From Nymphaea colorata (taxonomy: Eukaryota), in NCBI RefSeq assembly GCF_008831285.2, contig NC_045138.2:23498001-23562000 (forward strand): a DNA stretch of 64,000 nt. The letters run 5' to 3'. Every line of letters starts with the position of its first letter. Position 1 is the first letter of the stretch. The notes below the pieces were generated by a model. It ran no database searches. It worked only from the letters and a program-made list of their open reading frames with translations, and had not been told where the DNA came from. The position numbers and the translations under genes are program-made. Of this stretch, positions 30,158 to 64,000 are shown in pieces.

Positions 30158-33100
30158 TATTAAGGATAACTTCTAGCTAGCTAGAAGATTCAAATCACAT
30201 GACCGTGCCGTGAGTAAAAAGGAAGACATGCACGGTAAGAAAATCGACACCAAGATAGGAATGGAAGATAACACAAGCATCAAGGAAATCTGTACAACCT
30301 ATAAAGATAAAACCCAAGATAAACGTAGAAAGGATTTGTTACCTTGCATTGAGGAAAACGTCACTTGTGAGATATCTTTAAATATAAAACTAGTGGGAAC
30401 ATCTATTTGATTAAAAAACAAAGATAGAGAGACTGAATCGGGGAAGCAGACTTAAGTCGAACCACGTTAAATACTTGTGTTTATTTGTGTAAGCATGTGT
30501 CTCTTTTATGATATCAGAGCATTAAATCCTTCAACCGAAGGTTCCTTTCCTGATTGCTGGACAAGGGTGTCATCTCAAAACAGTGGACAGAATAACACAG
30601 AGACAGGTTCCAGTATCCTGCCCTTTTCAAGTCAGTTTTCTCCTGTAAAACCAGCTCCTACAAACCTACAGTTTTGTTTATCAATAAAAATAACTGAGGA
30701 CAACTACCTCTTCTGTCAGAGCCAATTTTTTGCCTCTGCTTAAGAGTTACAAAATATTAGGATTCGTTGACCCATCAAATTGGTGTCTTGCAGAGTGGAT
30801 TGAAAATCAGGACAAAACCATATCTAGAAATACTAAATATGATGAATGGCAATATTGTGATCAACTTTTATTAAGCTGGTTGATATCCTCGTTGATACCA
30901 TCGGTTCACAGCCATGTCATTGGTTATGGAACGTCATATAAGTTGTGGGTAGCGTTAAAGAAAATGTACGCTGCCCGATCTCATGCTCGTACTTGGCAAT
31001 GGAGAGGTCAGTTACAGAATTTAAGAAAAGGAAATGATACTATCTCTGATTATTTCTATAAGGTCAAAAACTTAGCTCACCAACCGGTGCCTGCCTTCAA
31101 ACCAATAGAAGAAGAAGAGCTCATCTCCTACACTCTATCTGGTCTTCCAACTCATGAGTATGGCCCTCTAAGGTTTGCTATCAATACTTGTGTGGAAGCA
31201 ATCTCTCTTGAAAATCTATTTGGAATGCTTTTCTCTCACGAAACACAGATTCAAACCGACACAATGGCATATCAAATTGCTGGCAATCTATCATTTAAAC
31301 CAAGTCAAAACCATACTATCGAGGAAATCAAAATGAAGGCAACCAAGGAGGGCGTGGCTATGGTCGGTCACAAAACATAAACACAAAGAATGTCATCTCT
31401 CATGCATGTGGTAATCAAAAGCACATTGCTACTAACTGCCGCACAACATGTCAGATATGTCACAAGCAGGGGCATGCCACATTAAAGTATAAATTATATG
31501 AATCCAATAAGTTTGATGCAAAATCGGTTCTAGAGGCTTATGTTGTAGTGTTAGACTCAAAAGATGGAGGATGGTATCCCGACTCCAGGACAACGCATCA
31601 CATCACCTCAAATAGCAACAGCATGACAAGTCCCAGTGCTTACTGTGGCAATGACCAAGTAAAATTAAGGAAGGGATCTAGCCTATAAATCAAGCGTATT
31701 GGAAACTCTATTATCAAATTCAATAATTCTGATTTTGTTCTGAAAAATGTGCTTATTGTTCTTAATATTACTATGATGTTGATGTCAGTCCATAAGTTCT
31801 CAAAGGACAATAATGTGCTTTTTGAGTTATATCTTAATGAATGTTATGTGAACGATATCAGCTGTCAACACCGGGCGAACACGCCTCACGGGCCTAAATG
31901 AGCAGGGACTTTACAAGCTAGGGACCGAAACTAAACATGGACAAAGGAAATCTGACACCTTAGCCCTTGTTGGTGAATGTGTGTCACTGGAGTCATGGCA
32001 TCAGAGGATGGGACACCCTTCTTTCAAAATAGTTCAGTATGTGATCAAGAAATATGCTTAACCATTTGATTTATTGATATGTGATATTAAAAAACCTTTA
32101 GACATGCTATTTTTTTATGTTTGGTGACCCGCCCCAGTTGCATCCATAAATGGGTACCACTATTATGTTGATTTTGTTGACGAACATGCCATCTTTACAT
32201 GGATTTTTATTCTTAAGCACAAATCTGAAGTATTGTTTGTCTTCCAAAATTTCAAACGCATGATTGAAAACAACTTAGGAACCAATCAAAGTTGTCCAAA
32301 CCAACTAGGGTGGAAAATATCTTTTCGAGTGATTGAATTGCTGGTTGGTTGTATTCTATTTTGCAAAAGAACTGAACGAATTTGAATGCCTATCGGAAGC
32401 CAAATTTGTTTCATAAGACTTATCAAAAGAAGCAATTGGATAAGAATCATACGCTGAATGAGAATATCGTTCCTTATCTACTTTTCTTAAGAAAAATGGA
32501 ATTGAGTACATACTTACATGTCCTCAAACATACGAACAGAATGGAAGAGTTGAGCGGCGCCATATGCATATTATAGAGACTGTACTTGCCTTCCTTGCTC
32601 ATGCAGGCCTCCCCTATAAATTTTAGGACTATGCCTTCTTGACTGCCACATATTTAATGAATCATATGCCATCGCCTGTAGTCAAAATGCAGTCTCCTTA
32701 CTCTCTTTTGTTCAAACAACAACTAGGTTATAAATTTCTTAAAATATTTGGTTGTGCATGTTATCCATACTTAAGGCCTTACAACTCTCACAAGATGGAA
32801 TTTTAGAGAAGGAAATGTTTTTTTCTTGGCTACGTGGATAGCATCATGGATATTTTTGCTATGATTTCAAGGCTATTAGAATGTTCATTAGTTGTCATGT
32901 TGTCTTTAGTGAAGTTTAATTCTCATTTAAAAGCTCTCCAAAACATGTTGATCCTACTCTTGAATGTCCCTTACCAGCATTAAGCTACCCATTATCTGTG
33001 CTCTTTAACTTACCCACTATTGCATGTGAACACCTATCCAGTGTTCCATTCACTTACCCAAATCTTCCTAAACCTGACCAGGTTATGCATACGTCTGTGT

Positions 33101-35109
33101 CCTCTCATGTCTCTCCTTCCTTGTCTACAACCACCCCATCGACCACCCTTTCTCCCCATTTGCCACCCCTTCCTTGCCTACACCCCGAAACATATCTCCA
33201 CCAATTGCACCCAACTTATCTTCTCAGGTTCACCAAATGCTTACCCAGTCCCAGACTGGCTCTTTAAAACCTCGGCTCTTTCTCTCTTCTGTCTCATCTT
33301 TTTCTAACTCTCCTAGTTCTAATTGGCGACAAGCTATGGCTGCAGAGTTCTCTGTTCTGTTGAAAAATCAGACATGGATACTTATTCCACCGTCACCAAC
33401 ATATAACCTTATAGGCAATAAATGGGTGTAAAAGATCAAACCTAAGCAGGATGGCTCCATTGACGGCTACAAGGCTCACCTTGTGTTGACCAATGCGGTC
33501 TCTTCTCGATGGCCTATTCACCAACTCGATGTGCATTACGCCTTTCTCAATAGTGTGCTTAGTGAGGATGTTTACATGAGTTAGCCCCAAGGCTTCCTTG
33601 ATGCTCAATATCCCCATCATGTATGCAAACTCATGACAGCTCTATGATTTTAAGCAGGCTCTGCAGACATGGTACCATCGCCTCAGCACCTTTCTTCTCA
33701 GCCTGAGCTTCTAGCCTTGATGCATCCCTATTCATGTGTTTTAACAAACATCATGTTATTTTCACACTCATTTATGTTGATGACATACTGGTAACTGGTA
33801 GCTCTCCTCCTAGAATTTGCCACCTCATTCAGCAGCTTGGACATGAATTCTCTCTCAAGGATGTTGGCCCGCTTCATTATTTCTTAGGCATTGAAGATTG
33901 TTCTACTCATGAGGGCTTTCACTTGCTTCCAAATTAATATGAGCTTGATCTTCTTCGTTGGGCATCTATGATGGATGCCAAGTCGGTCGCTACTCCATTG
34001 CCTGTGAACTTGAACCTGTCCAAATATGATGGGGATCATCTTCCTAATCCCACTGAATATCGTCAACTTTTTGGGGCACTTCAATATCTAACTATGATCT
34101 GACCGGACTTAATGTATATCATCATCAAAGTATGTCAATTTATGCAGGCGCCCACATCTTCCCACTAGGCAGCGGTCAAACGCATTTTGTGCTATGCTAA
34201 AGGTTCCATTGATTAAGTTATTCTTCTCCGTCCATTCACCTCTTTTCACCTCATGGGTTATATCGTGTGCAGACTGGACCAGCAATCCATTGATAGAAAA
34301 TCTACTAGCGGCTTTGCTATTTTTCTTGGGCATGCTCTTATTTCATGGTCTGCTAAGAAGCAGTCCACCATGGCTAGATCTAGTACAGAAGTTGAGTACC
34401 GAGCACTAGTTTCCACTGTTACTGAATTGATTTCCCTTGTTCACTTTATGCAAGAGCTTCGTTTGCCACTTCCTGGGCCACCTTAATTGCTTTGCTTTGT
34501 GGATGACAACCTCAGCACCACTTATTTAGCAGCTAATCTAGTGAATCACCAACAAATTAAACACATTGAAATCGACATTCACGTTGTTTGTGATCATGTT
34601 CAGCAAAGTTGCCTTCTTGTTCATTATGTTTGCTCAGAAGATCAACTTGCCGATATTATGACTAAAGCACTCTCTCATGCTAGGTTCCTTGATTCATGCA
34701 CCGAACTCAACTATCTCCCAAGACCGTTGAGTTTGCGAGGGGATATTACAGATAATGATTAGCCAGTTAAGGTGCATATCCAGCCCAACGAATTGCTATC
34801 TCAAGAAGATCTGAAGCACAACACCGTGAGTAAAAAGGAAGACATGCACGTCAAGAAAATTGACACCAAGATAAGATAACACAAGCATCAAGAAAATCTT
34901 ACAGCCTATAAAGATAAAATCCAAGATAAATGTTGAAAGGATTTGTTGCCTTGTATTGACAAAAACGTTACTTTGTGATGTATCTTTGAACATGAATAGT
35001 GGGAACCTCTATTTGTTTGAAAAATAGAGATGGAAAGACTGAACTGTGGAGATAGACTTAAGCCGAACCACGTTAAATACTTGTGTTTATTTTGCATGTG
35101 TCTTTTCTA
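30158..35109 (+). mobile_element. Ty1/Copia LTR retrotransposon, full-length but decayed; LTRs 30158-30508 and 34744-35109
   Basis: TSD AACCC (30153-30157, 35110-35114), PBS TGATATCAGAGC at 30509-30520 and PPT GCGAGGGGA. Coding remnants are gag (DQLLLSWL, QNLRKG), protease WYPDS, integrase (WHQRMGHP, EQNG), RT IYVDDILVTG and RNase H (ARSSTEVEYRA, KHIEIDIH). Confidence 0.93.
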
Positions 35110-42172: not shown

Positions 42173-45100
42173 TGGTAGCTAAAGGAATGACTTGCCTGCA
42201 CGTCTTCTTCTTGTGTTCCTGAAAATGACACAAATATAACACAAGAGCAACACAACAACTAATCCACCACTTGTTTCTTCAAGTGGTCGCAAGGCATGAC
42301 ACAAGGCAACAAGGATTAAGCACACAACAAGAAACCTTTGAACACACTTGAAAGCGTTCTTTACTTACGTTTGGCCAACCCAAAGGGCCATATATATACA
42401 TGTAAAAAAAAAACTGAAAAATAAATGACATGACTCTTAGTGATTCCACTATGGCCATTATTGACATATGCATTAAAAACAAAAACTGAAAATTAAAATA
42501 GGCAACGTGAAGGGGCACTTGTCACGGTAGGATGGAACTTTTGGGGAACCCAAAAGTTGAACCCTTCACCTTCTTCATAAAAACATGACACATTTTTAAT
42601 TCTTTTGCATTAACTTTCATCACTCCCCCTTAATGCAAAGTTTAAAACACCAAGGTGAGATCAAAACTTCACAAATTTTGGGTATGAAAGTGTCTTAGTA
42701 AACCTATCCGCAACTTGCTCATTGGTTGAACAAAACTTCAACACGATTTGACCTTTACCAACAATCTCACGAATGAGATGATGACGAAGTTCAATATGTT
42801 TTGCCCATCCATGGTAAATCGGATTTCTTGTCATTGCTATAGTTGTCTTGTTGTCACAATGGATTGGTGTTCCTTCAGTTTGACTTTGACCAAGATCTTT
42901 CAAAACTCGACGCATCCAAATTGCCTGAAAAATAGCTGCTGATGCAGCAATATACTCCGCTTCTTAAGATGATAATGTTTTCGTACTTTGCTTCTTTGAT
43001 CACCATGATATAGCACCTGATCCAAGTGTATAAACATAGCCACTTGTGCTTCTTTGAACATCTATAGTTCCTGCCCAATCACTATTAGTGTAACCAAGTA
43101 AGTTAAAAAGACAAACATCTGATTTATGCCAAATTTCATATTTAGTAGTTTCACGGATGTAACGTAGAACACGTTTTGCTGCCCCCCAGATGGTGTAATG
43201 ATGGATTGTGCATGAACCTGGATACCAGCTGACAACAAATCAAATATTTGGTCGTATATGAGTCAAATATAACAAGTCACCAACTAGATCTCTAAACATT
43301 GTTCCATTGGCTTTAGCAGTCCCATCAGACAAAGTCAATTTTTCACCTGCATTCATTGGAGTAGAACACGACTTGCAATTTAACATTTTATACCTCTTAA
43401 GTAGGCTTAATGCATATTTTTCTTGACAGATAAAAATGCCATTATTTGTTTGGACAACTTGAAGACCAAGAAAGAAATGCAATAAACCCAAATCTGACAT
43501 TTCGAACTCACTTATTATACTATCCTTGAATTTTTGAATGAGCACATTACTTGATCCCATGTAGATAATGTCATCTACATAAACACATACCACAAGCATA
43601 TCAATACCTTCATTTTTCAAGTATAATGTGGGTTCACTCTCACAACGTCGAAACCCATTTCTGTGAAGATATGTGTCAAGCCTCCCATACCATGCTCTTG
43701 GTTCTTACTTGAGACCATAAAGGGTCTGCTTCAACTTATACACTTTCTTCTCATGTCCACCTACGACAAAGCCCTGTGGTAGATGTACGTATACCTCTTC
43801 TTCTAAAGCACAATTCAAAAAAGCAGACTTGACATCAAATTGAAATATCTTCCATTTTAAGTGAGCTGATAGTGCCAATACTAGTCTGATAGTCTCAAAA
43901 CGAGCAACAAGAGAAAAAATTTCAAAATATTCAATGCCATATTTTTGTACATACCCTCTGACTACTAGTCTGGCCTTGTATTTTTGCGCATCTTCATCGA
44001 CATTATACTTTAATTTGTAAAATCATTTCACACTTATAGGTTCCTTTCTTTGTGGCAAATCTACCAGCTGCCATGTATCATTTATCTTAATTGTATCGAT
44101 CTCTTCTTACATTGTTTTTTCTCATTCTTCTTTACCACATGCTTTCTCATAACATGATGGTTCAGTTACCATAAAAGTAAATGAACAAGAAGCATATATG
44201 TCATGTAGAGATCGTACCTTTCTTGGTGGAGAAGATCCATCTGTAATTATTTTTACATCTTCTTCATGATCCGAATTGGTCTCTTTTGAATGAGTAGTAC
44301 TTGACGATGATGCATTTGAGTGAGAAGTTGATTCAACAAATAGAATATGTTTGTCTTCTATTGTTGTCCACTCTCATGATCCATTCTCATAAAAAATGAT
44401 ATCACGCCGAATGATTAAAGACTTTGTTACCGGATTGTATAGTTTATAACCTTTTGAGTTATTACTATAACACCCAAAAATACATTTTTCACTCTTTTTG
44501 TCCATTTTGTCTGGACTACTAGAATCAAGCAAGGAGTAGGCAATGCATTCAAAAACTTTTAAATTACTTATATCAGGTTTTTTCTCCCACCATACTTCAT
44601 ATGGAGTCATATTGCGGACTGCTTTAGTTGGTGATATGTTGAGAAGATACACAGTTGTAGCCACTGCTTCAGCACAAAACTTATTTGAAAGATGTTTCTC
44701 ATTCAACATGCTACGAGCCATTTCTACCACTGTGCGATTTTTCCTTTCAGCAACTCCATTTTACTAGAGAGTTTTTCTTACTATCAACTGTCTACGTATA
44801 TCATGTAATTTGCAGAAATTTTCAAAATTATTTGACAAAAATTCTTTCCCTCTATCAGTACGAAATATTTTTATAGGTCACTCACATTCTTTTTCTGCAA
44901 ACATTTTAAATTCCTTGAATTTTTCAAAAGCTTGAGATGTTTTAATAAGAAAAAACACCCAACTCATGCGAAAAAAATCATCAGTGAATAGTAGAAAATA
45001 TTTACTATTATTCAGAGATGGAGTTCTTGTTGGTCCACAAATGTCAGCATGCACTAATTCTAAAGGAGCTTTCGCTCTCCATGCTTTCCCAACTGGAAAT

Positions 45101-47058
45101 GGAAAACAATGTTGTTTTCCATAAACACATGCTTCACAAATATCTTCATTATTGGTAAGATGAGGTAAACCAACAACTAATTTTTCTACCCCAATCACTT
45201 CAATCCATTGTAGTGCAAGTATCCATATCTTAAGTGTCATAATTTAGACACTTTATTCATGTCTACAACTAAGACATATGCACCAAAGTGTGAAAGCTCG
45301 ATTGGAAACATTTTGTTTTTTGTCATGTGCACCACTCTAGGTGGCATGTTAGAAAATTTCTTTTTGATTTCACATATATCATCATGAAATGAAATTATAT
45401 ATCCTTTTTATGTTAACTGTTTAACACGTAGCAAGTTATATGGTAATCCAGGTATATAATAAGCATCATGTACCAATCTTTTAGTATCACCTTTAATTGG
45501 TATCTCAATTGTGCCTTTACCATCAATTTGCACATTTTTCTTGTCTCCAAGTAGAACTTGTTGCTTCACTGATTCATCAATGTCACGAAACAAGCCTCAC
45601 TTTCCTGTTATATGATTACTCCACCCACTATCTAAAAACCATACATGAATATTTTCTTTTGACTTTGTATGAGTAAAAAACAAGTTACCATCTTCTGTTT
45701 TTTCTTCCACTACATTAGCATGTTGTTTTGCATTATCCCAACAGTATGCTTCAGTATGACCATTTCTTTTGCAAAAAATACAGTACCTGTTTGTGTGGCC
45801 ATGTTTTTTATTGTTTGTGTCACCCCCTTCTTACTTGTTTTGTCCTGCCTCAAATCTTCCTCGTCCACGCCCACGGTAGTTACCTCTACCTCACCCCCGA
45901 CATGCATTCTTTCGTACAGTTGCTCCCTTTCTCTCTTTGCTAAAGTCATCCAACTTGACTTGGGCTTGGAATGCTTGTTCTACACTCATATTTTTTCTAC
46001 AATTTTCTGGTTATTGACAACCTCTCCAAAGGTTTTCATCTCATTTATAATTATGAAAGCTCTTGAAAAAAATTCTTGGACCGATTCATTGTTTTTCATA
46101 AACAATGTTTCAAACTCTTTACGGAGGGTTTGGAGTTTCACTGTCGTTACCTTCTTATCACCATGATATTCTTGCTTGAGAATAGTCCAAGCTTCATTTG
46201 AACTAGTAGCACCAGCAATTTGAGGAAAGATAGTCTCACTTACAGCTTGTTGAAGAACAAGTAAGGCTTTTGAATCTTTCTTCCGCTGCTCTATTGATTC
46301 AACTATCTTTTCTCCTTGTTTGGAGCTCTCTCCATTTCTATATAGTCATTTTCAACTAGATCTCAAAGATCTTGTGATAAAAAGAAAGTTTTCATTTTTA
46401 TGCTCCAAAATCCATATTATCACCATTAAATACAGGTATGAGCGATTAAAAAAATACTTTAAGTGGTCATGCCATTAGCCATAATGAACAAAAACTTCCC
46501 ACATAAATTTTGTAGAACAAATTGTGTGCAAAATTTACCTTGCAGGCTTCTCTTTTGCACTCTTACCAACAATCACAAGTACACAATCAACTTGGCTCTG
46601 ATACCACTGTTAGCTAAAGGAATGACCTCCCTGCACGTCTTCTTCTTCTGCTACTGTAAATGACACGAATATAACATAAGAGCAACATAACAACTAATCC
46701 ACCACTTGTTTCTTCAAGTGGTCGCAAGGCATGACACAAGGCAGCAAGGATTAAGCACACAACAAGAAATCCTTGAACACACTTGAAAGCCTTCCTTACT
46801 CACGTTTGGCCAACCCAAAGGATCATATATATACATGTAAAAAAATTGAAAAATAAATGACATGACTCTTGGTAATTCCACTATGGCCATTATTGACATA
46901 TGCATTAAAAACAAAAAAACTGAAAGTTAAAATAAGCAAGGTGAAAGGGCACTTGTCATGGCATGATAGAACTTTTGAGGAACCCAAAAGTTGAACCCTT
47001 CACCTTCTTCATAAAGACATGCACACGTTTTTAATTTTTTTTGCATTTACTTTCATCA
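42173..47058 (-). mobile_element. Ty1/Copia LTR retrotransposon, decayed; LTRs 46608-47058 (5') and 42173-42622 (3')
   Basis: TSD AAATG (42168-42172, 47059-47063), PBS TGGTATCAGAGCCAAG (46606-46591) and PPT AGGGGGAG. Coding remnants include integrase LVHADICGP, RT VYVDDIIY and RNase H KHIELRHH. Confidence 0.95.
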
Positions 47059-52223: not shown

Positions 52224-55200
52224 TGTTGAATGTTATTGCCTGTAGCGGTTGAAAAAGATCGCCCAAAAATCAAGAGGATGAGTTGTTAGGCGTTGCAGAT
52301 TGAGAAATCACAATGAATTAGGAATGATAATCTTGTACGAGAAGAAATCAGGGATATGAACGTTTCTTGTTCTTATCCAATAGCCTCTATATATATACCT
52401 TGTAAATGATTCATAAACACAATACAATTTCTTCATTCTCAGTTCCTTTCATTGTCTCTCTTCCTCTCAATTTATCATGGTATCAGAGCCTTGTTGAAGT
52501 CGACCAAGGCAAGCATGGGCAGCATCTGCTCACGTTGCTTCCATCTTCACGGTTTTCCCAAGAAGAGCACGTCTAATGGCCAACAACAGCAGCCTCAAGC
52601 AAATCTTCATTCTTCCAATGATGCATTGTCAATCCCTCCATCTAAAAAGCCTCAAGAACAGCCAACTTCCTTCACGCCAGATATGTACCGTCAGTTTATG
52701 AAATTTATAAATTCCAAAACACTGAAAGTCAACCTCGTAGGTATATTAAATTCACCCATTGTCTGTTTGGCCTCCTCTCAAGTATGGATAATTGATACCG
52801 GAGCTACACATCATGTTACCAATTGCTTGTCTAACCTTGTTTCACCTTCTTTAGCTCAGTCTAGTCCTGTTAAGCTCCCTAATGGTTCGACAACTCCAAT
52901 TACTCATGTTGGTCAGTTGCATTTAAATTCCTCTATCATGTTACATCACATCCTGTGTGTTCCCACCTTTTCTTTTAACCTTATATTTGTGTCTAAGTTG
53001 GTTGCTAAAAACAATTGTTATGTTATCTTTGATACTCATTATTGTACAATTCAGGATCGACGCTCGATGAGGATGATTGGGAAGGGTAGGATGGAGAATG
53101 GCTTGTATATCCTTGAAGATGAAGAACCACCCGCCGCCGCAACCTCGCCAAACCAATCCCATTTATGGCATGTTAGACTCGGTCACCCTTCACTTGCTCG
53201 CCTAAAAATCATTATTTAGTTTTATTGATTCTTCTCATGTTAATGAACATTGCTCCATATGTTATCTTGCCAAACAAGCTCGGTTACCATTTCCCAATAG
53301 TTCTATATTTACCATTAGCATATTTCAATTGATTCATTGTGATATTTGAGGAGGTTATCAAACACCTTCACTATCTGGTGCTCATTATTTTCTCACTATT
53401 GTGGACGATTTTTCACATTGCACATGGGTCTTTCTCATGCGTTACAAATCTGAAGCATTTTTTTATATTCAAAAATTCATTAATCTCGTGAAAAATTAAT
53501 TTCAAACCTCCATTAAAAAAAAAACTGTTGTGATAATGGAGCTGAATTTTTTTCTGCAAATATGGAAAATCTTTTACACCATAAGGGCATTGAACGTCAA
53601 CATTCTTGCATCACTACACCCCAACAAAATGGTGCGCTTGAACGTAAACACAAAGATCTTTTAAATATTGTCCGTGCACTTTGTTTTCAAGCATGCTTAC
53701 CTATAAAATTTTGAGGAAAATGTGTTTTAACGGCAGCCTATTTACTCAACCGTTTGTCCACTCATCCTTTACAAGAAAAAACCCCTTATGAGGTTCTTTA
53801 TGGGCAAACTCCCAAATATGATCATATTGGGGCTTTTGACTGCTTATGTTATGCTTACAACATTAGTAAGGCACACAAATTTAATTCGCGCTCACGCAAA
53901 TGTGTCTTTATCGGATACCCTTTTGGTCAAACTGCCAATAAACTTTATGATCTTGACCGTCATGAAATTTTTATTAGTCGAAATGTTAGGTTTATAGAAA
54001 GCATATTTCCTTTTCAAAACCATAAAGACCAAGATAGTAAGGATGTTATACCTCTCCCATCTCAAGAATCACTTGAATATGAATATCATGCTCATGCACC
54101 TAGCCCACAACAACCAACCCAACCTTAAACCCTTAGACCCTCACCACAACCAGATGACCACCAACCCACCACCGTTGAAGCTATCACCACCAACCATGAT
54201 TCCCGTGAACCTTCATTACGGCGATCAACTAGACAGCACATCCATCTTCACGACTCAAGGATTATCAATGTCATTCCATTGCTCAGCCCACATCATCTGA
54301 ATCAACGTTAGTGCCTATGCAACCTAACGGAACAAGGTACCCCATGAGTCAATACCTCCATTTACACAAGTTTTCTCCTAAATATCAAGTGTTTCTTACA
54401 TTCTCACTCACCATGAGCCATCCACTTTCCAAGAAGCAATGCAACATCAAGAATGGATAGATGCTATGGCTGCTGAAATTCGGGCACTAGAAGCAAACTC
54501 CATTTGGGAGGTGGTTTCTCTCCCACCAGGAAAACACCTTATTGGCTGCTGATGGGTATATAAAATCAAATATCATGAAGATGGCACAATCGAGCGATAC
54601 AAGGCTCGCCTCGTTACTAAGGGTTATACTCAAACAGAAGGCATTGATTACACATAGTCATTCCCTCCAGTCGCTAAAATTACCATCATTCGGTGTTTCT
54701 TATCCACTGCAGCCATCAAAGGATGGAGCCTTTTTCAAATTGATGTCAACAATGTCTTCCTCCATGGTGATTTACATGAAGAAGTCTATATGACACTTCC
54801 TCCTGGTTTTACCCGACAAGGGGAGAATAAGGTGTGTCGAAGAAACAAATCTTTATATAGACTCAAACAGTCATCTCGCAACTTGTTTTTTAAATTGACA
54901 GATACCCTCAAGCAACTTGACTTCACTCAATCTAAGGCAGACTATTCATTGTTTTCCAATATCAATAAACAGGGCAGCGTTTTCATAATTGTATATGTCG
55001 ATGACATAATCATCGCAAGAGACAATCGTGATGCCATCGAGAAACTGAAAGTCATCATCAATAGTAAATTTCAGTTGAAAGATTTGGGAGAATTAAAATA
55101 TTTTTTGGGCATTGAAGTAGCTCAATCCAAGAAATGGATATTCTTATCCCAAAAGAAGTACAACATGGACATGTTACATGAAGCCGGATACAGTGGTGCT

Positions 55201-56233
55201 AAACCTAGCGAAACACCTATGGAACAACATTTAAAAATAGATGATGAAAGAGGGAAATTACTAAAGGATCCTACCTTTTTCAAGAAAATAATTAGTCATT
55301 TAGTTTATCTAACCATTACACGACCCGATATCTTGCAAAGTGTCCACATGTTGAGTCAATTCATGTCACAGCCAAGAACAACACGTTTAGAGGCAGCCTT
55401 CAGGATCTTTCGATACATCAAATCTACAGCAAGTTATGGGATTCTGCTATCATCTCATAGTGACATAATAATTAAAGCTTTTTGCAGTTCGAATTGGGCA
55501 TCTTGCCCAATGTCAAGGAGATCCACTTCAGTTTTTTGCATTTTCATTGGAGAAAGCCCAATATCTTGGAAAGTTAAGAAACAAACAACCGTTTCGAGGT
55601 CTTCAGCAGAAGCCAAATATAGAGCAATGGCATTGACTTCTTGCGAGATGACTTGGATAAGGTACATTTTAATGACTTTGGAATTACTCATCATCAACCA
55701 ATGGAATTGCATTGTGACAATCAAGCAGCAATACACATATCTGCAAATCCGGTGTTTCACGAAAGGATGAAACATATTGAAATTGACTGCCATGTCGTTC
55801 GAGAGAAGATCCAAAGAAAAGAAATTTGTACTAAGCAAATTGACATTGAAAATCAAACTGCAAACATTTTTACTAAGGCATTGGCAAAGGACTCATTTGT
55901 AAAATTCAGATGCAAGTTGGGTCTCATCGATCCTGGAGCACCAACTTGTGGGGGAGTGTTGAATGTTACTGCCTGTAACGGTTGAAAAAGATCGCCCAAA
56001 ATCAAGGAATCAAGATCGCCCAAAATCAAGAGGATGAGTTGTTAGACGTTGCAGATTGAGAAATCGCAATGAATTAGGAATGATAATCTTGTACGAACAG
56101 AAATCAGGGATATGAACGTTTCTTGTTCTTATCCAATAGCCTCTATATATACACCTTGTAAATGATTCATAAACACAATACAATTTCTTCATTCTCTTTT
56201 CCTTTCGTTGTCTCTCTTCCTCTCAATTTATCA
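52224..56233 (+). mobile_element. Ty1/Copia LTR retrotransposon lacking most of gag; LTRs 52224-52477 and 55957-56233
   Basis: TG...CA LTRs, TSD TCTCC (52219-52223, 56234-56238), PBS TGGTATCAGAGCC at 52478-52490 and PPT GGGGGAG. Coding remnants are protease WIIDTGATHH, LWHVRLGHPS, RT VYVDDII and RNase H KHIEIDCH. Confidence 0.95.
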
Positions 56234-59144
56234 TCTCCTTCCCATCCCAAACCCTAACCCTACTCCCAGCCATCACTGCAGGCCCTCCGCCCAACATCTG
56301 GGTTGAGAGCAACCTTGATCAGATCATGTCTACTAATCTCTCACTCAAGGAGACAATGAATTCCAATCCACTGATTGCCCTACCAGCCATAAGCATGGAT
56401 GCCTTGGCAATTATGCCCCATCACTGCAAATCATGCCATTTTGAGCTGGTACAATGGCGCACCAGGCAGCCCTTCTATGTCTCAAAAATAAAAGAACTGG
56501 TAAAAGCAGTCAAGAAGCTGGGAGGTGTATTCATGTGTTTGTCTGCCACTTACATTATGATGATTTCTTAAACCTTTCTATTTACTACATCTCTCAAAGG
56601 ACAAAGAGAGTGGACGAGTGATAGTCAAGTTGAGGATGTTAGAAAAAACTTGCTGCAATTATTTGCAAAAATGTGTACATGTATCAATTTGTGTTGTTAG
56701 CATATGGTTGCTTGTTGTCTTATATCCTTGTTGGTGTTTATTTTGGTTCATGCTAGCATTGACGACACAAAGCATGCCACATATATTGTTGGTGTCCATT
56801 TTGATTGTGCTTCTTACTCTTCCCTGTTTCGCTTTCTTTGCTTCCTACTTTTCCACCTTGCTTCACATAATCTTTGCTTATAAGATGCAAATGTGCCAAC
56901 ATCTTGTTTGTTTTGCCCGCTTAATAGGGAATGCCTTGCACACATTGGAGAATGAATTTTAGCACTCAATCACTTGAAATGGACAAAAACATATAGCTGA
57001 GATATTTTTTTATAATTGTAATGTTCAGGTTTGCATGGTACTGATGTTCCCTTTTAGGTTTACATGGTAATAATGTACATGAATTATCTCATTAGATTTC
57101 TTATGAGATAATAAGAATTTTCTCAACATTGCAAATATTTTCAAGCTTTGCTATCATTTGTTGCCATGAATCAAGAACAAAATATTCAGTTGTAAGTAAG
57201 AGGTGGCATACCCATCTGGGAGCCATGCTCGGGTGATCTGGACATATATTAGTAGCGTGTTACTTGTGTTACTATTTTTATCTTCATCAATAATCCACAA
57301 CTTTTTCGTAACAAAATGAATATACAGTGAGGTTTTATGAGAAGGTTTAAATTATAGTTTCAAAATTTTGACAGAGGCCAATATATATATATATATGAAA
57401 TCTTTTAAAATTTACATTTTTTTTTAAGGGGGAGGGGAGCGGGGTAGGTACTGCTGGCTCCATCCCTGTCAAATTTCATGTTTATCCAAGCTCAGAATTG
57501 GGAGTTTGCTGGGTTATACTTTCTGGGATTGGAAGCTTAAATAAATGAATGTCTGCTCCCCAAATTTCAGGTTGATTCTAGTTCAGGATAAGAAGATGTG
57601 ACCCTCAGTAAACGGCAGACCTCGTGGTGTCTCTGCAGCTTTTGTCCACTGTTAAGGGAGGTGACAGTTCTAGATGATGCTCAGTCAACCAGATTGAATT
57701 GGCAACATCTCCTTGCAAAATCTTACTAGCTTGTTGTTTTTTGGAAAGATAATTTTATAAGTTTCTCAATGACTATAAACTTAGAAAAATAGGAGTTTAT
57801 TTATCTTATGAAATGTGTGATCGCTGATCCCATTAATTGTAGAAGCTGGTTATGTGCACAAATCCATGTTCACAAAAAATTGTGCACAAGAGTGTGTAAT
57901 AACTAAAAATATTCTCCATTAAAATAAATATGAAAAATTTTTTAGAATGATAAAAAGGGATTGTCAAAATTTAAAAAAAAAAAGTCTAAAATATCCAACT
58001 TTATAAAAATTTTTAAAAATACCCTCATCTCTCTTTGTGCATACTTGTTGCAACATGTGCAGGCAACTATCATTTTTTTTCGAGCACTTGGCATTTGGCA
58101 GCAATGCACCGCTTCTAGCTAGTTCCATCAAGGGCTTGGTGTCGCAAGTTATGTTTGCTATATTGGTACAAAAAATTTGGTGCGCCAGTATGGTTAATTA
58201 TTAAAATATCTTTCATTAATTAAAAAAAACTTTTTTGAATTGTTAAAAAAGAAACGGAAAAAAGTTAAAAGACTAAAAATGGCACTCTTTTTTTAATAAT
58301 TTCTAAAATATCCCCACTCCGGGCACTCCCTATTTTTTTTTTTCAGAGCCTAGTACGCTCTTGGTATTGTAAGTATGCTCTGCTTTTAATGAAAGTTTTT
58401 ATGTGTGTTTAAAGTTTTCGTTCGTGTTTCGCTTATAAGCCGAATAGGAAAGTCTCTTCCCCGGAAGCATGTCTCTTTGTATATGCCTGCATAATATGTT
58501 GTTATGAATCTTTTTGTTTTATGTTGGAAGTTCTGGCCCTAGCCAGGATCTATGCGTAGGAACCATACTTTATAAGGAAGAACCTGCTGCAACATGTTTT
58601 GTTCATGAACTGATTCCCGTGTTTTTGAGTTCTTCATTTTTTGGACGAGCCATTATGTGAATCCTTTAAGACCAAAAGACTATTGTGGAAAAGAAGTACC
58701 CGTGAGGCGAGGAGGCCGTTTAGGGGAAAAATAGTACACAAACGGTGAGGTTTGAATGGGATGACAAGGTGTCGCACATGGTGTTCTATGAAAGGAGAAT
58801 ACAACAAGTTTTCAAAATCGGGGGAATCATACCATAAGCTTACCATGTTTCAGTTTGTTCTTTTTTATAATAGATGTGTTATCTGTTCGTAGAACCCTGT
58901 TTTTGTGAAAGGAATTTTTTCAACCTAAAAACAATAGACTCGCAAATAGAGTGAAGTTGTATGCTTGATACATAGGACTGTGGGATAGAAAGAGATGAGT
59001 ACCTAGTAGGCTCAAGAACCTTTTGATCTAAAAAAACCGTACCTTAAGACCTCTTTGATTTCAGCACACTGTGTTTCTCAAAAAATCCAAAAATATTTAC
59101 TAGCCAAAATTAATAGTTTACTGAATTTTCTTTCGTATTATTAT

Positions 59145-59868
59145 ATGCATAGAGTAGAATATTTGAATCTTGAAATATACCCAAACCATAAAGATATAAT
59201 ATGCTAACTCAAAGAGACCCAAAAATTTACAATAAACAGGTGACACATATAGCTAGAAGCAAAGTTATAAAATATCTCCGGAAAATTGTAACTGTTAAGA
59301 GATTTATAAACAAATTAAAAAGATTAGTGTTTCTTAAGCAAATAGAGCAACACTGGCATATGATAGAATTACAGCCAGACGATAATTATTCAGACTACTC
59401 GGACTATGAAGAATATTTATACAACGAATGGTACGAACCCTGAACGTTTGCCATATCATTACTCCACCATATGAATTGACTAGAATACCTCAACCTAGAA
59501 CTATACCAAAAATCTAAGAGTACTGTAAAAAACAATCAATTTAGTCATACATGTTATTTTCAAAATGGAAAACATCTACTTCATAATGAGGACACTAGTC
59601 TCATGTCTCAACAACTAAATTGTATAACTGATCTACACATTTCCTTAGCACAAAGCTTAGAATCCTACAATACTAAGAACCAGGTCTTTTTACAACCCAT
59701 ATTTAATACATTAAGAAATAATATTTTTAAAGACATATTAGAAAACCAAAGACATCTAAAAGACCAACTAGCCACAATTTTAGTAAACTAGGAAAGCTTA
59801 CAAGCATATAAAGATAATACTGAAATCATAAAATTAATAACTGAAATCAAGCAAATAATCCTACGCTG
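59145..59868 (+). pseudogene. Viral ORF1 (or two small ORFs), function unknown, disrupted
   Basis: Fragments 59145-59200, 59201-59443 and 59603-59791 continue to ...ITEIKQIILR* at 59868. The C-terminus is coiled-coil-like. Confidence 0.5.
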
Positions 59869-59871
59869 AAT

Positions 59872-62312
59872 ATGGATTATATTTCGAAAACCTTAGCCAA
59901 AATAGAGTATAAACATGAGCATGAATGGAAACACAGATCAGGAAGTAGTGACCATCAATGCATCTTTTGTAATGGGTATCCTAGTATAGAACTAAGATTT
60001 CAGTGCAAGATTTGTACGACTGAAGCATGCAAATTTTGTCTAGAACAAAGACAGTATCAATTTCTTCTAGAAAAAATGATTGGACGAAAAGATGACACTA
60101 TAGAAAAACGAATCCTTGCAGTAGAAAATAGAATTGATGATATAGAAAAAACCTTAGCCATAACTAAACTAAAAATAGGATCCTTAGAAAACAAGATAGT
60201 GAAGTTTGATCCAATAAATTACGAGATGTCGAATATCAAAGGGAAAAGCATAATTTTGGAAAAAGGTGAAAGGGCACTAACTACTATAACCTTTCCCAAT
60301 ATGAAGACTGACCATAAGGAACAAAGAAGAACAGGTATCAGAATTCCTTGTATATTCAAGATAGAAAAGTGGAAGTTAGAAATAGATGCCTTAATAGACA
60401 CAGGGTGTAGTGTCTCGGTGTTAGATAAAGCATTGGTTCCACCAGAATATCATAGAAGCCTAGACCTTACCTTACAACTTTGGGCAGAACAAATGGATGG
60501 ATCCTTACACAAATATGATGAAGAAATATGCAAATATAAAATAGCTTTTAGACTCTCTGAAGAAGAACATACTGCCTACCAACCAGGGCCTAAGACATTC
60601 ATTAGACATATGCAATTACATGATAGTACGAAATGCATTATATGACTAAATTTCATTCTAGAAAATATGGCCGAGTTTGTCATAACCAGGACAGGCCTTT
60701 CTTTTCTTACCAACCAAGTTTCTTGGGTCCTAGAATGGAAATTATATGGAAATAAAGGCTGTAAATGTAAAATTTCAGGAGTCTGCAAAGAAAAAATTGA
60801 CCTAACCTACCCTGAAGAAGAAGATGACCTAGAAGAATTAGAAATAGACCCCGATTATAACCTTATAAATATATAAAAAATCTATAATAAATTAGAAACA
60901 GGCTGTATAGAAATAGATGACTTGCTCAGAATATTAGAAAATGATGAAATCAGAGGAGAAATACCTACTAAACATTGGGATCGTAATAAGATAGAATGTA
61001 TCCTACAGATAAAAGACCCAAGATTCACTATTTCCAACAAAAAGATAAATGCTACGAATGACAATATTAAAGTTTTTGAAATGCATATAAATGAATTGTT
61101 GAAACTAGGAGTCATAAGGAGAAGCATAAGCCCTCACAGGAGTCCTGCTTTTAAACATAGTGAACAAGTTCGTGGAAAATCAAGAATGGTCATAGACTAT
61201 AGGCGACTTAATGATAACACCATAGAAGACTCTTATGATATACCTGATAAGACTGAATTAATCAATAGTATACAACACAGTAAAATATTTAGTAAATTTG
61301 ATTGCAAATCTGGATTCTGGCAAGTAAAAATACATACGGATAGTATTCAATGGGCTGCATTTACTTGTCCCTTAGGAAGCTTTGAATGGTTAGTCATGCC
61401 TTTTGGCTTAAAAAATGCTCCTGCTATATTCCAACGAAAAATGGATATGATATTTAGCCAATATAGAGGATTTGTGTGTATTTATATAGATGATATTTTT
61501 GTTCATAGTAAAACACAACCAGATCATATAGGCCACTTAAAAAGAGTGTTAGGAGAATTTCTACGTAATGAAATTATAACCAGTATTAAAAAGGCACAGT
61601 TCTTTAGAACACACAGGATATTTAGGTGTAGAGATTGGTGATGGAAAAGTCAAACTACAACCACATATAGCAACTAAAGCTTTAGAATTTGAGATACATG
61701 ATATTAAAAGCCTTCAATGGTTTTTAGGATTAGTAAACTATGCTAGACCATTTATTAAAGACTTAGAAAAAATGGTCGGCCCATTATATAGTAAACTCGG
61801 CCAAACTTGGGTTAAAGCTTTTAATACAGAAGATATGAAACAAATAGAAAAAGTCAAGCAATAAAGTACTTACCAGAAATGTATCTACCCCTAGATTCAG
61901 ATTTTTTAATAATTGAAACGGATGGATGTATTAACGGGTGGGGAGCAGTGTTAAAAAGGAAACCCAATAAGTATGCTTTCAAAATAACTGAAGTCGTCTG
62001 CAGATATAGCAGCGGCCAGTACAAAGAAAAGGGACTCTCCAGTAGTATAGATCAGAAATTCTTACAGTAATATATGGGCTCAATAGTTTTCGCTTATTTT
62101 TGCTCAACAAAAAAGAAATAATAGTTAGGACCGATTGTGATGCTATTGTAAAGTTTTATGAAAATAAAAATTCTAAAAGAATAAGTCAGAGAAGATGGAT
62201 ATCCTTTAAAGATACCCTTATAAACCAAAATTATAAAGTAACATTTGAACACATAAAAGGAGAAAACAATCGTCTAGCCGATATGTTAAGTAGATTGTTA
62301 AAAGATGAATAG
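59872..62312 (+). pseudogene. Viral polyprotein: Cys motif, aspartic protease, RT, RNase H; disrupted
   Basis: ORFs at 59872, 60667 and 60922 share one frame and are split by single stops, with frameshifts after ~61610. Motifs are CX2CX11CX2CX4CX2C, protease LIDTGC (~60390) and YIDD at 61483-61494. RNase H ends LADMLSRLLKDE*. Confidence 0.92.
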
Positions 62313-62553
62313 AGACATTGATGTTTATGAATCTGAAATAAGAAGACTTAATAAAATTGTCAGTTATCTCGACCAATCTAGAGTAAGGTTACATGACCTT
62401 AACCCTGCTTTCTCCATCGAGATCAGAAAAGTTAGTGATGATCTTTTAGACATTGTTTTAAGCATGCAACAGTTAGTTGATGACATGAAACAAGAAAGGG
62501 TTCAAGCATCTTCATCTCGTTCTTCAAATGACACTTCTGCATGTAGACATTAG
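62305..62553 (+). CDS. Small viral ORF (82 aa, predicted coiled-coil), overlapping the pol stop
   Basis: An open ORF whose ATG overlaps the last pol codons, with a heptad-like hydrophobic pattern. Confidence 0.5.
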   Translation: MNRDIDVYESEIRRLNKIVSYLDQSRVRLHDLNPAFSIEIRKVSDDLLDIVLSMQQLVDDMKQERVQASSSRSSNDTSACRH

Positions 62554-62613
62554 TCATGGTAGACAAGATAGAATGCATTGTTTCATTTAATATTTTTCTT
62601 ATTACAGGACAAG

Positions 62614-63997
62614 ATGGCCTCTACAAACCAGTTGCCCCTTGACCCAGACCTAGGATTACCAATCTTCCCACCTCATTCAAATTTGGTCTTTCGAACTTCT
62701 CCAGGCTTCATCCTTGATATAAAAGATCATGTCCTTCTAGACAACCTTTGGCAAAACAAAAGAAATCCCTCACACTCAAAAATCATTTCCTTATTAGCCA
62801 GCCATCTCAACTTGAAAAACAGGCAACTTCAATCCAAAACTCTGCCCGAACTCTCCCTGGATCATATAACCCAACGACCTCAAACCTTGGATGTTATCTT
62901 ACCCTAGAAAGGAGCCTAAAAGCAGCCCGAGCAGAAATAAGTTGGCGGAAAAAGGAAAAAGAAGAGCTAAATGAAAAAATACAAGCTCTAGAAACAGAGA
63001 ATATACTCTTCAGGGAACATGTTGAAGAAGAAACTAGGAAATTAGGAGAAAAAAGAGAAACAGTTCCCCCAAACATCCCATTAGTCAAGGAACAGATCTA
63101 TCATTTGGTGATGAAGGCAAAAAGAAAATAACAAGTTGACATGCAGAATCTATTAAGGACCATGGCACGACATTCAAAGAAGAGAAAGCCTGGTTTGGAA
63201 TTTGCTTTGCTGAAACATAAACATAACCCACATGAAGAAAGTTCTTTCTGTGAATGTGAACAAGGATTTTCCATTATACAAGCCACTCTTAACCTTAGAA
63301 AGTGGCAGGACCAAGAGATTCAGGGGATAAAACTTTCTCCCAAAACTCTTTTGGAGCAAGGATTTTTAAAACGAGTACTGGTTACGAAAGAAGAGCAGGT
63401 AAATATCTTGATTTTCATTGGCGATTGGCATACACATTAAGAAGGATGTTTAAACTTGGAAACATAAAGCCTTATGGCTATGTTAATTTAGACATTGAAA
63501 CTATTCCTCCTTCGTATGAATATCCTTGTGAAGCGAAACATGAAATTACAATCAATATCTACACTTCACTTTTTCCCCTGCAAACTCATATTCCTGAAGA
63601 AACTCTTCGAACTCTTCTTATTAATGAAGATGTATATTCCCAACTGAAGAGTTGGAGAGCTTATACAATTGCTGCAGACCAACATGCCCGGTGCACAAGA
63701 TCTACTTGTATGGTAGCTGAAGATAAAAATACACGAATCTTCCTAGCAGAGACTTGGCTTACTGAGAAATTTTACATTCCTTTCCAAAGTTTCTTACAGA
63801 TAAACCCTGGCCTCTGTGAACACTTCTGTCAAATCTATGATAGTAGTCCTGCAGAATGGACCGGTGATGATCAAAATGTCAAAGTAGTCATTCATAGAGA
63901 TGACAATGAAGATGAGTGGAATGTTGGTGATGAAAGAGAATGAGAAAATAATGAACAATACGAAGAAGAAATTATAGAAGAAATTGGAAACAACTAG
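62614..63997 (+). pseudogene. Large post-pol viral ORF (~460 aa), possibly TAV/viroplasmin-like, disrupted
   Basis: Fragments 62614-62907, 62748-63131, 63141-63440 (in frame with 62748 across one TAA) and 63302-63943 join via two frameshifts. It contains a coiled coil, a KTLLEQGFLKRV motif and an acidic tail. Confidence 0.6.
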
Positions 63998-64000
63998 GGA

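Follow-up and report, generated by a model that had tools for sequence, protein, structure and literature searches.

The last 5.66 kb of the 64,000-nt stretch of Nymphaea colorata contig NC_045138.2 analysed here (the window, in whose positions all coordinates are given) hold an endogenous caulimovirid on the plus strand, running from 58343 to the window end and set in plant DNA rich in LTR retrotransposons. It encodes a polymerase and no recognisable movement protein (MP) or capsid protein (CP), and the question that it raises is whether it is the wreck of a complete virus or a segment that multiplied in this form and relied on a partner for the rest. The copy at 58343 is itself dead and decayed. 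In our view it probably derives from a yendovirus-group genome consisting of a leader, the first-gene protein P1, the polymerase gene (pol) and a last open reading frame (ORF), with no P2, MP or CP, which multiplied as a non-autonomous replicase segment served in trans by a partner. Non-autonomous polymerase segments are already known; their occurrence in Yendovirus would be new, and the partner is predicted only.

Gene content of the element

The order from the primer site is leader, small ORFs, pol, a small ORF3 and a last ORF4, and every long ORF except ORF3 is broken. It was compared with a pool of relatives comprising 122 loci (L labels) and about 300 proteins (P labels). First, the preliminary description of this locus had reported neither MP, capsid nor capsid knuckle, and all searches agree with it. 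Pfam finds neither MP nor CP in 13 stop-free frames, a CX2CX4HX4C knuckle is absent from all six frames, and profiles built from 17 MP and 16 CP regions reach no more than 1.9 and 1.1 bits, respectively, in six frames of the whole 64-kb window, as against 14.5–243 bits (MP) and 25.5–181.5 bits (CP) on all seven held-out control viruses, some of them of distant genera. The 30K MP and CX2CX4HX4C capsid of an autonomous Caulimoviridae genome are thus both missing from the window. Secondly, the little room seen earlier for these proteins is now quantified: the P1 stop and the second Cys motif lie 90 nt apart, compared with 2568–3052 nt in all five full-length relatives measured, and the element as a whole is without 2.5–3 kb that full-length relatives have. 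P2 is taken as absent because there is no room for it; a three-sequence P2 profile missed its own control, L119, which from its ORFs we take to be Rice tungro bacilliform virus (RTBV). A search with the Cys-protease piece for longer proteins found none, this being a weak search whose candidates did not include the known relatives. Many representative sequences begin shortly ahead of the Cys motif, but this was given no weight, as gene prediction on decayed copies produces such starts as well.

Thirdly, what precedes pol is not a structural gene. The single ORF1 of about 240 codons described before has to be abandoned, as the region 59145–59869 comprises two plus-strand units, ORF1a (59145..59443, about 99 codons, with one frame change near 59190) and ORF1b (59471..59869, with internal stops at 59477 and 59789). 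ORF1b is a homologue of the P1 (ORF1) proteins of tungro-, badna- and yendo/orendo-type viruses, as seen by alignment, by tblastn (L081, E 3e-7; L011, E 3e-5) and by shuffle tests, in which 0 of 500 shuffles reach its score against the first ORF of each of the full-length loci L081, L011, L070, L119 and L018; a weaker likeness extends to L016, L019 and the badnavirus-type L108 (2–8 of 500 shuffles) and to L101 (28 of 500). The MP and CP profiles are negative here too, so that ORF1 is neither a capsid nor a movement protein.

ORF1a and ORF1b open with a duplicated start of about 43 nt (33 of 43 nt identical), which suggests from the sequence that ORF1a arose by local duplication; the remainder of ORF1a has no assigned relative. 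Its likeness to the N-terminus of protein P0003 was rejected, 116 of 1000 shuffles being as good, as were those to P0005, P0004 and P0006 (152, 333 and 28 of 1000, respectively). Other copies of the element were studied through public contigs from runs X1, X2, X3, X6 and X7 aligned to the window, with contig depth serving as a rough guide and not as a copy number. The stop separating the two units (59441–59443) is a different stop codon in copies of X3, X6 and X7, and must therefore be old. In X1 and X6, low depth and joints that bypass it (such as 59028>59464) place ORF1a in only part of the copies, and it is also found in diverged contigs of X1, X6 and X7. Some copies pass from the leader straight to a single P1 (window 59030–59464).

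The P1 stop (59867–59869) is followed at 59872 by the ATG of pol, just as first described, and the pol ORF (59872..62312, plus strand; Pfam, motif and tblastn) extends from the second Cys motif to RNase H. The CX2CX11CX2CX4CX2C motif begins where it had been placed, at pol residue 30 (59959–60039), and is succeeded by a coiled segment, a tungro-type A3B aspartic protease (~60388–60615; Pfam Peptidase A3B, 33 bits with a cut-off of 28), reverse transcriptase (RT; ~60910–61608, RVT_1) and RNase H (~61855–62300), again in the order originally given. This array, present without integrase or LTRs, fits endogenous Caulimoviridae. Decay is extensive, with stops at 60643 and 60874 and frame changes near 61610, 61858 and 62060 in pol adding to the two stops in P1 and to further breaks in ORF1a and ORF4.

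Two ORFs to the right of pol (62305–62553, and 62614 to ~63997) had been overlooked. ORF3 (62305..62553, plus strand, 82 codons) is open in the ORF map and overlaps the pol stop; it has no convincing homologue, and a small ORF occupies the equivalent place in L049, L050 and L064. ORF4 (62614..63997, plus strand), the last ORF (ORF z, or P4-position protein), is broken into three frames and was assigned by shuffle tests. Its N-terminal part aligns with the final ORF of yendo/orendo-type loci (piece 4a: 0 of 500 shuffles against both L027, z 11.8, and L011, z 9.2) and its C-terminal part matches the last-ORF end of L049 and L050 (pieces 4b and 4c against L050: 0 of 500 shuffles, z 7.3 and 9.9), the match to L050 stopping at residue 373 of 388, near window position 63940. 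Because ORF4 matches the relatives' last ORF at both ends, the window covers the gene set as far as its final gene. ORF4 gives no MP or CP signal with Pfam or the MP and CP profiles, and its end found no usable match in an atlas search.

The position of ORF4 bears on whether MP and CP could lie past 64000 instead, in a monopartite virus of rearranged order with a monomer of ~9–10 kb, an arrangement that we regard as very improbable. The sequence read does end at 64000, the RT-bearing protein P0003 (see below) is found on 9.2-kb contigs, and in Dioscorea alata 10.4 kb separate two RT loci; but no gene follows the ORF4 position in any mapped relative, the present ORF4 stops at the window edge, every full-length locus mapped has MP and CP ahead of pol, and the P0003 pol, which lacks the Cys motif, fits the ordinary order with a separate upstream CP ORF. 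We know of no caulimovirid with MP and CP after pol.

At its left end the element starts at 58343 within a tRNA-Met primer-binding site (58343..58350, plus strand), which precedes the ORFs as in Caulimoviridae, has lost its first bases and adjoins a host T run. Contigs of X1, X2 and X3 cross this join with 0 differences, and hence it is real; the upstream flank is single-copy, and other copies run on upstream of 58343, as seen from loose ends in contigs. The leader or intergenic region (58343..59144, plus strand) is 802 nt long and contains many short ORFs and nothing longer, in keeping with the ~800 nt of non-coding sequence first reported. It has a long central hairpin (~58535–58985; z -3.95, 0 of 60 shuffles as stable, for a stretch picked after the fold had been seen; coding-DNA controls give z of about -0.1); folding of the whole leader reaches only z -1.5. 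The leader is the highest-depth part of the family and has no useful match among the 122 loci.

The flanking DNA has features of its own. A short high-copy MITE-like repeat (57333–57387) has many loose ends in all four runs, and a decayed Ty1/copia element (52224–56234), with LTR-like repeats at 52224–52478 and 55957–56234 that are 96% identical, lies 2.1 kb upstream of the viral insertion. Two further pairs of long direct repeats, at 30208–35092 and 42173–47040, are ~4.4–4.6 kb apart, 84–96% alike and probably LTR retroelements, and there is an RT-like stretch near 1448.

Recurrence of the short layout

The family is multicopy, with X1 depths of 670–1225 in pol, 1100–1870 in ORF4 and 1280–1710 in the leader compared with ~24–35 in the single-copy flank; most aligned contigs are less than 95% alike to the window, with differences that are mainly transitions. 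In a close-up of the junction of P1 and pol, for which 24 of 952 contig pieces and 18 of 272 loose ends were listed, four diverged contigs from three organisms and three studies bridge the P1 stop and the pol ATG (X1 record 3, X6 records 12 and 13, and X7 record 21), each with at least 31 nt on either side, 27–51 differing letters and 13–16% divergence. A fifth contig, from X1, appears to be collinear from P1 into the Cys motif, judging from the equal depth of its pieces, and none of the 18 loose ends listed falls at 59865–59875. Because the junction recurs in four such diverged contigs, a deletion confined to this locus cannot account for the layout. The preliminary description had taken the tidiness of the stop-to-ATG junction as the sign of an evolved segment; by itself this is a weak argument, and it is the recurrence in diverged copies that counts. 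A layout without structural domains is common to many copies, as expected of component A in a bipartite or mutualistic pair. The same description had named three findings that would speak against such a segment, namely MP and CP between ORF1 and the Cys motif in other copies, MP and CP just beyond 64000, and an ORF1 that is itself a capsid or movement protein; since the layout recurs, ORF1 is neither of these and ORF4 ends at the window edge, two of the three are at odds with what is seen. RNA is uninformative on expression: in ~6% of one run, 4 reads match 58900–60200, 0 of them at 99%.

A shared layout could also descend from a single old deletion that removed P2-MP-CP from an integrated full-length yendovirus, the dead copy then being multiplied in the host by duplication (tandem or segmental) and passed on to related species, having never replicated as a virus. 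We consider this unlikely. The junction-bearing copies are 13–16% removed from the present one and two distinct ones occur in X6, whereas the host flank differs far less between the same runs; the flank of the present copy is unique and single-copy, and the element's left end lies at the primer site, where a viral DNA end is expected; and the loss leaves P1 whole and provides pol with an ATG 30 codons before the Cys motif. In its favour, endogenous pararetroviruses are often rearranged and clustered (accessible part of PMC13451355), the junction depth is below half of that around it, the flanking DNA was read for this copy alone, and the three organisms may be close kin, with flanking host DNA in X6 that differs only slightly.

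Several observations count against a replicase segment served in trans. The junction depth (206–279 in X1) is only 40–50% of that of P1 and the Cys motif, which may mean that other copies carry P2-MP-CP at this point, or are more diverged. A 1611-nt X6 contig (record 10), in an orientation that was inferred, matches the 5′ half of P1 and continues with ~1.1 kb that do not resemble the window, and a loose end of 106 nt precedes 59899 in one X7 contig; the short form may thus occur alongside full-length or partner elements. With a flank known for this copy alone, the others may not be independent integrations, and no partner was seen, a genome-wide partner search not having been made. The sister RT, P0003, is on ~9.2-kb contigs with room for a full gene set, and a yam yendovirus-like contig is reported to have MP-like and zinc-finger domains of its own, both absent in the window element (accessible part of PMC13451355). 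Lastly, P1 and ORF1a contain five ATGs each, which equals the chance expectation and does not suit leaky scanning, a process that requires AUG-free ORFs (PMC5902531, in the portion available), though decay may have added some of them.

The depth profile has further structure. In X1, X2 and X6 the leader has a greater depth than pol, and depth falls sharply at ~59030 in X1, X6 and X7, with roughly half of it returning in P1, a pattern that weakly hints at elements that have this leader but other genes.

Lineage and relatives

The suggestion that the element might represent an undescribed lineage does not stand, as its RT is about 79% identical to members of Yendovirus-02 (de Tomas and Vicient 2022, PMC9794742). 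With DioAla-18 it shares 169 of 213 residues (79%, by hand count), above the 60–62% thresholds used for RT groups (PMC9794742 and PMC13308828, in the parts available), which by identity places it in the Yendovirus-02 cluster. Among the RT rows searched in supplement file 4 of PMC9794742, its motif variant occurs in five Dioscorea rows only, all of them Yendovirus-02 (DioAla-18, DioAla-19, DioAla-21, DioRot-06 and DioRot-10). The available part of that paper presents the cluster as RT sequences only and describes no gene order for it. The lineage is therefore already known by its RT, and its gene order is the new part.

Trees of 84 rows (a quick version) and 37 rows were made from selections of the 122 loci and ~300 proteins. 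Closest to the window element among the proteins is P0003 (72% identity over 230 columns), its sister with 100/100 support; P0003 is a pol ORF of its own, has no Cys motif and lies on ~9.2-kb contigs from several assemblies. In its cluster the same 783-aa pol ORF is present on contigs of 9224–9559 nt in at least six records. These contigs may come from a yendovirus-group genome of full size, so far undescribed, in which pol forms an ORF by itself. The next RT neighbours (P0004, P0010, P0124, P0012 and P0009) are 56–59% identical, with clade support of 92.5/93, and include other polymerase proteins without CP, in support of a replicase segment: P0004 has an MP remnant followed by Cys motif, protease, RT and RNase H (a faint MP trace of 7 bits, no CP), and P0124, a Cornus florida gene model, has MP, Cys motif, protease and RT, again without CP, although gene models of this kind may be spliced or partial. 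Protein P0128 has, fused to a yendo-like RT-RNase H, another protease-like part, the N-terminal domain of RNase H1 and, at the C-terminus, a dUTPase (Pfam).

The window element and P0003 stand apart from the badna-, diosco-, tungro-, caulimo- and rice-type rows in trees that do not include named yendovirus references and whose backbone is poorly supported. The named badna-, diosco-, tungro- and caulimovirus RTs are 40–53% identical to that of the window, so that with its position outside their clades, no MP or CP and no room for P2 the element belongs to none of Badnavirus, Tungrovirus and Dioscovirus. Nor is it a Wendovirus, which has four ORFs, two proteases, and CP and MP upstream of pol (accessible part of PMC9794742); the window element has one protease and neither CP nor MP. 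No close relative was found in viral contigs or in the 44 of 64 parts of a metagenome collection that were scanned, where the best full-length match is 57%. RTBV, the rice eRTBVL/Orendovirus and Dioscorea nummularia-associated virus (DNUaV) share with the element P1, a second Cys motif before an A3B protease and a last ORF after pol, but carry P2 and an MP-CP-PR-RT-RH polyprotein (PR, protease; RH, RNase H) that it does not have; RT identities to the window are 40% for L119, 55–57% for the rice type and 53% for DNUaV.

Divided pararetroviruses and a predicted partner

Divided endogenous pararetroviruses have been described on the other side of the family, and the accounts below follow the accessible parts of the papers cited. 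Component A of florendoviruses (VvinBV, VvinDV, OsatBV and SbicV; Geering et al. 2014, PMC4241990) is 5.5–6.9 kb long and polymerase-bearing, has CP and sometimes also MP deleted, and keeps the intergenic region and a downstream ORF, like the window element. Florendoviruses, however, belong to clade B and have a known RT-less component B (PMC4241990), whereas the window element belongs to clade A, the bacilliform side, has P1 and the second Cys motif, and has a partner that is only predicted. The non-Oryza group of ePVCVL2 (sorghum and switchgrass; Chen, Zheng and Kishima 2017, PMC5491270) likewise lacks MP and CP; it is linked through a shared intergenic region to an RT-less partner and, unlike the window element, is petuvirus-like. 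The sole RTBV-side defective form in that paper, eRTBVL2, is of the opposite kind, with MP-CP-PR and no RT. In the literature covered, to which subscription journals are mostly external and of which several items were available in part (including PMC13308828, PMC13658181, PMC9719215, PMC5766536 and bioRxiv 158972 and 2025.06.08.658526), we found no description of a polymerase-only yendo-, orendo- or tungro-type segment; the reconstructed yendovirus sequences (Diop et al.; CAULIFINDER libraries; supplements of PMC13308828) may already hold this layout.

A parallel is seen in metagenome contigs of grass type. Among 79 metagenome loci, L027 and L029 have a whole primer site separated by ~90 nt from an intact Cys-PR-RT-RH ORF, which is followed by a last ORF, and both lack P1, MP and CP; in L027 (269–4138), L029 (457–4222) and L032 (41–3861) the intact ORF is 967–995 aa long. 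L032 is 98% like L029, and L027 and L029 are 79% alike over 3.9 kb. L027 and L029 nest in the rice-type full-length clade, apart from the window element, and one member of their cluster is a Panicum protein; short N-terminal pieces of the pol of all three contigs map to the MP-CP spacer of the full-length loci L016 and L019. The three contigs have no terminal overlap, so that circularity is not shown, and their lineage was not found described in the literature covered. Judged from sequence, the L027/L029 type appears to be a second, independent origin of a replicase-only segment.

We envisage that the window element descends from an episomal genome with a monomer of perhaps ~5.9–7 kb, allowing for the last ORF and the 0.3–1.4 kb that follow it in relatives. 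By analogy with other caulimovirids (accessible part of PMC5902531, and general knowledge), circular DNA would be transcribed into a pregenomic RNA on which ribosomes would pass the structured leader; P1 and a polymerase precursor would be made, pol being translated through shunting and leaky scanning or reinitiation, and the protease would cut the precursor. RT would then copy the RNA from the tRNA-Met primer. As this copying requires a capsid, and exit from the cell an MP, a co-infecting genome would have to provide both in trans; the simplest candidate is one sharing the leader with its packaging signals, and a shared leader is accordingly the predicted mark of the partner. Linear DNA broken at the primer-site minus-strand gap would likely have been captured by host break repair, and the copy would have decayed thereafter. 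An RT-less complementary component is slightly favoured over a full-length helper as the source of these functions; division of labour fits slightly better than parasitism on a helper because pol and the last ORF are kept and the structural block is lost.

A partner would be superfluous if the short genome were self-sufficient within the cell as a capsid-free replicon that copied itself like a retrotransposon. The retention of primer site, protease, RT, RNase H and Cys-rich domain and the tens of copies reached are compatible with such a replicon, which we nevertheless think extremely improbable: there is no integrase, LTR, Gag or capsid, caulimovirid reverse transcription is tied to capsid assembly, and no young, intact copies were seen, most aligned contigs falling below the 95% likeness given above.

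Returning to the replicase segment served in trans, we put forward only tentatively, as a doubtful extension of it, that genome division took place more than once on the bacilliform (yendo-/orendovirus) side. In this view the window element would be the polymerase-bearing part of a two-component yendovirus, and the grass-type contigs would be a second independent case, perhaps circulating to this day, for which RT-less elements like eRTBVL2 would be the natural partners. No living reverse-transcribing virus with a divided genome is known, and the fossil polymerase segments known so far belong to the florendo- and petuvirus-like side of the family alone (available parts of PMC4241990, PMC5491270 and PMC10377300). 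If the extension were true, genome division would be a recurrent route in reverse-transcribing plant viruses and not a florendovirus oddity. Yendoviruses are the second most widespread endogenous group and are known almost solely by RT; a polymerase-only yendovirus segment would be an independent origin, allowing the reasons for genome division and its course to be tested by comparison, and RT-based surveys would take such segments for complete viruses while overlooking the partners that have no RT.

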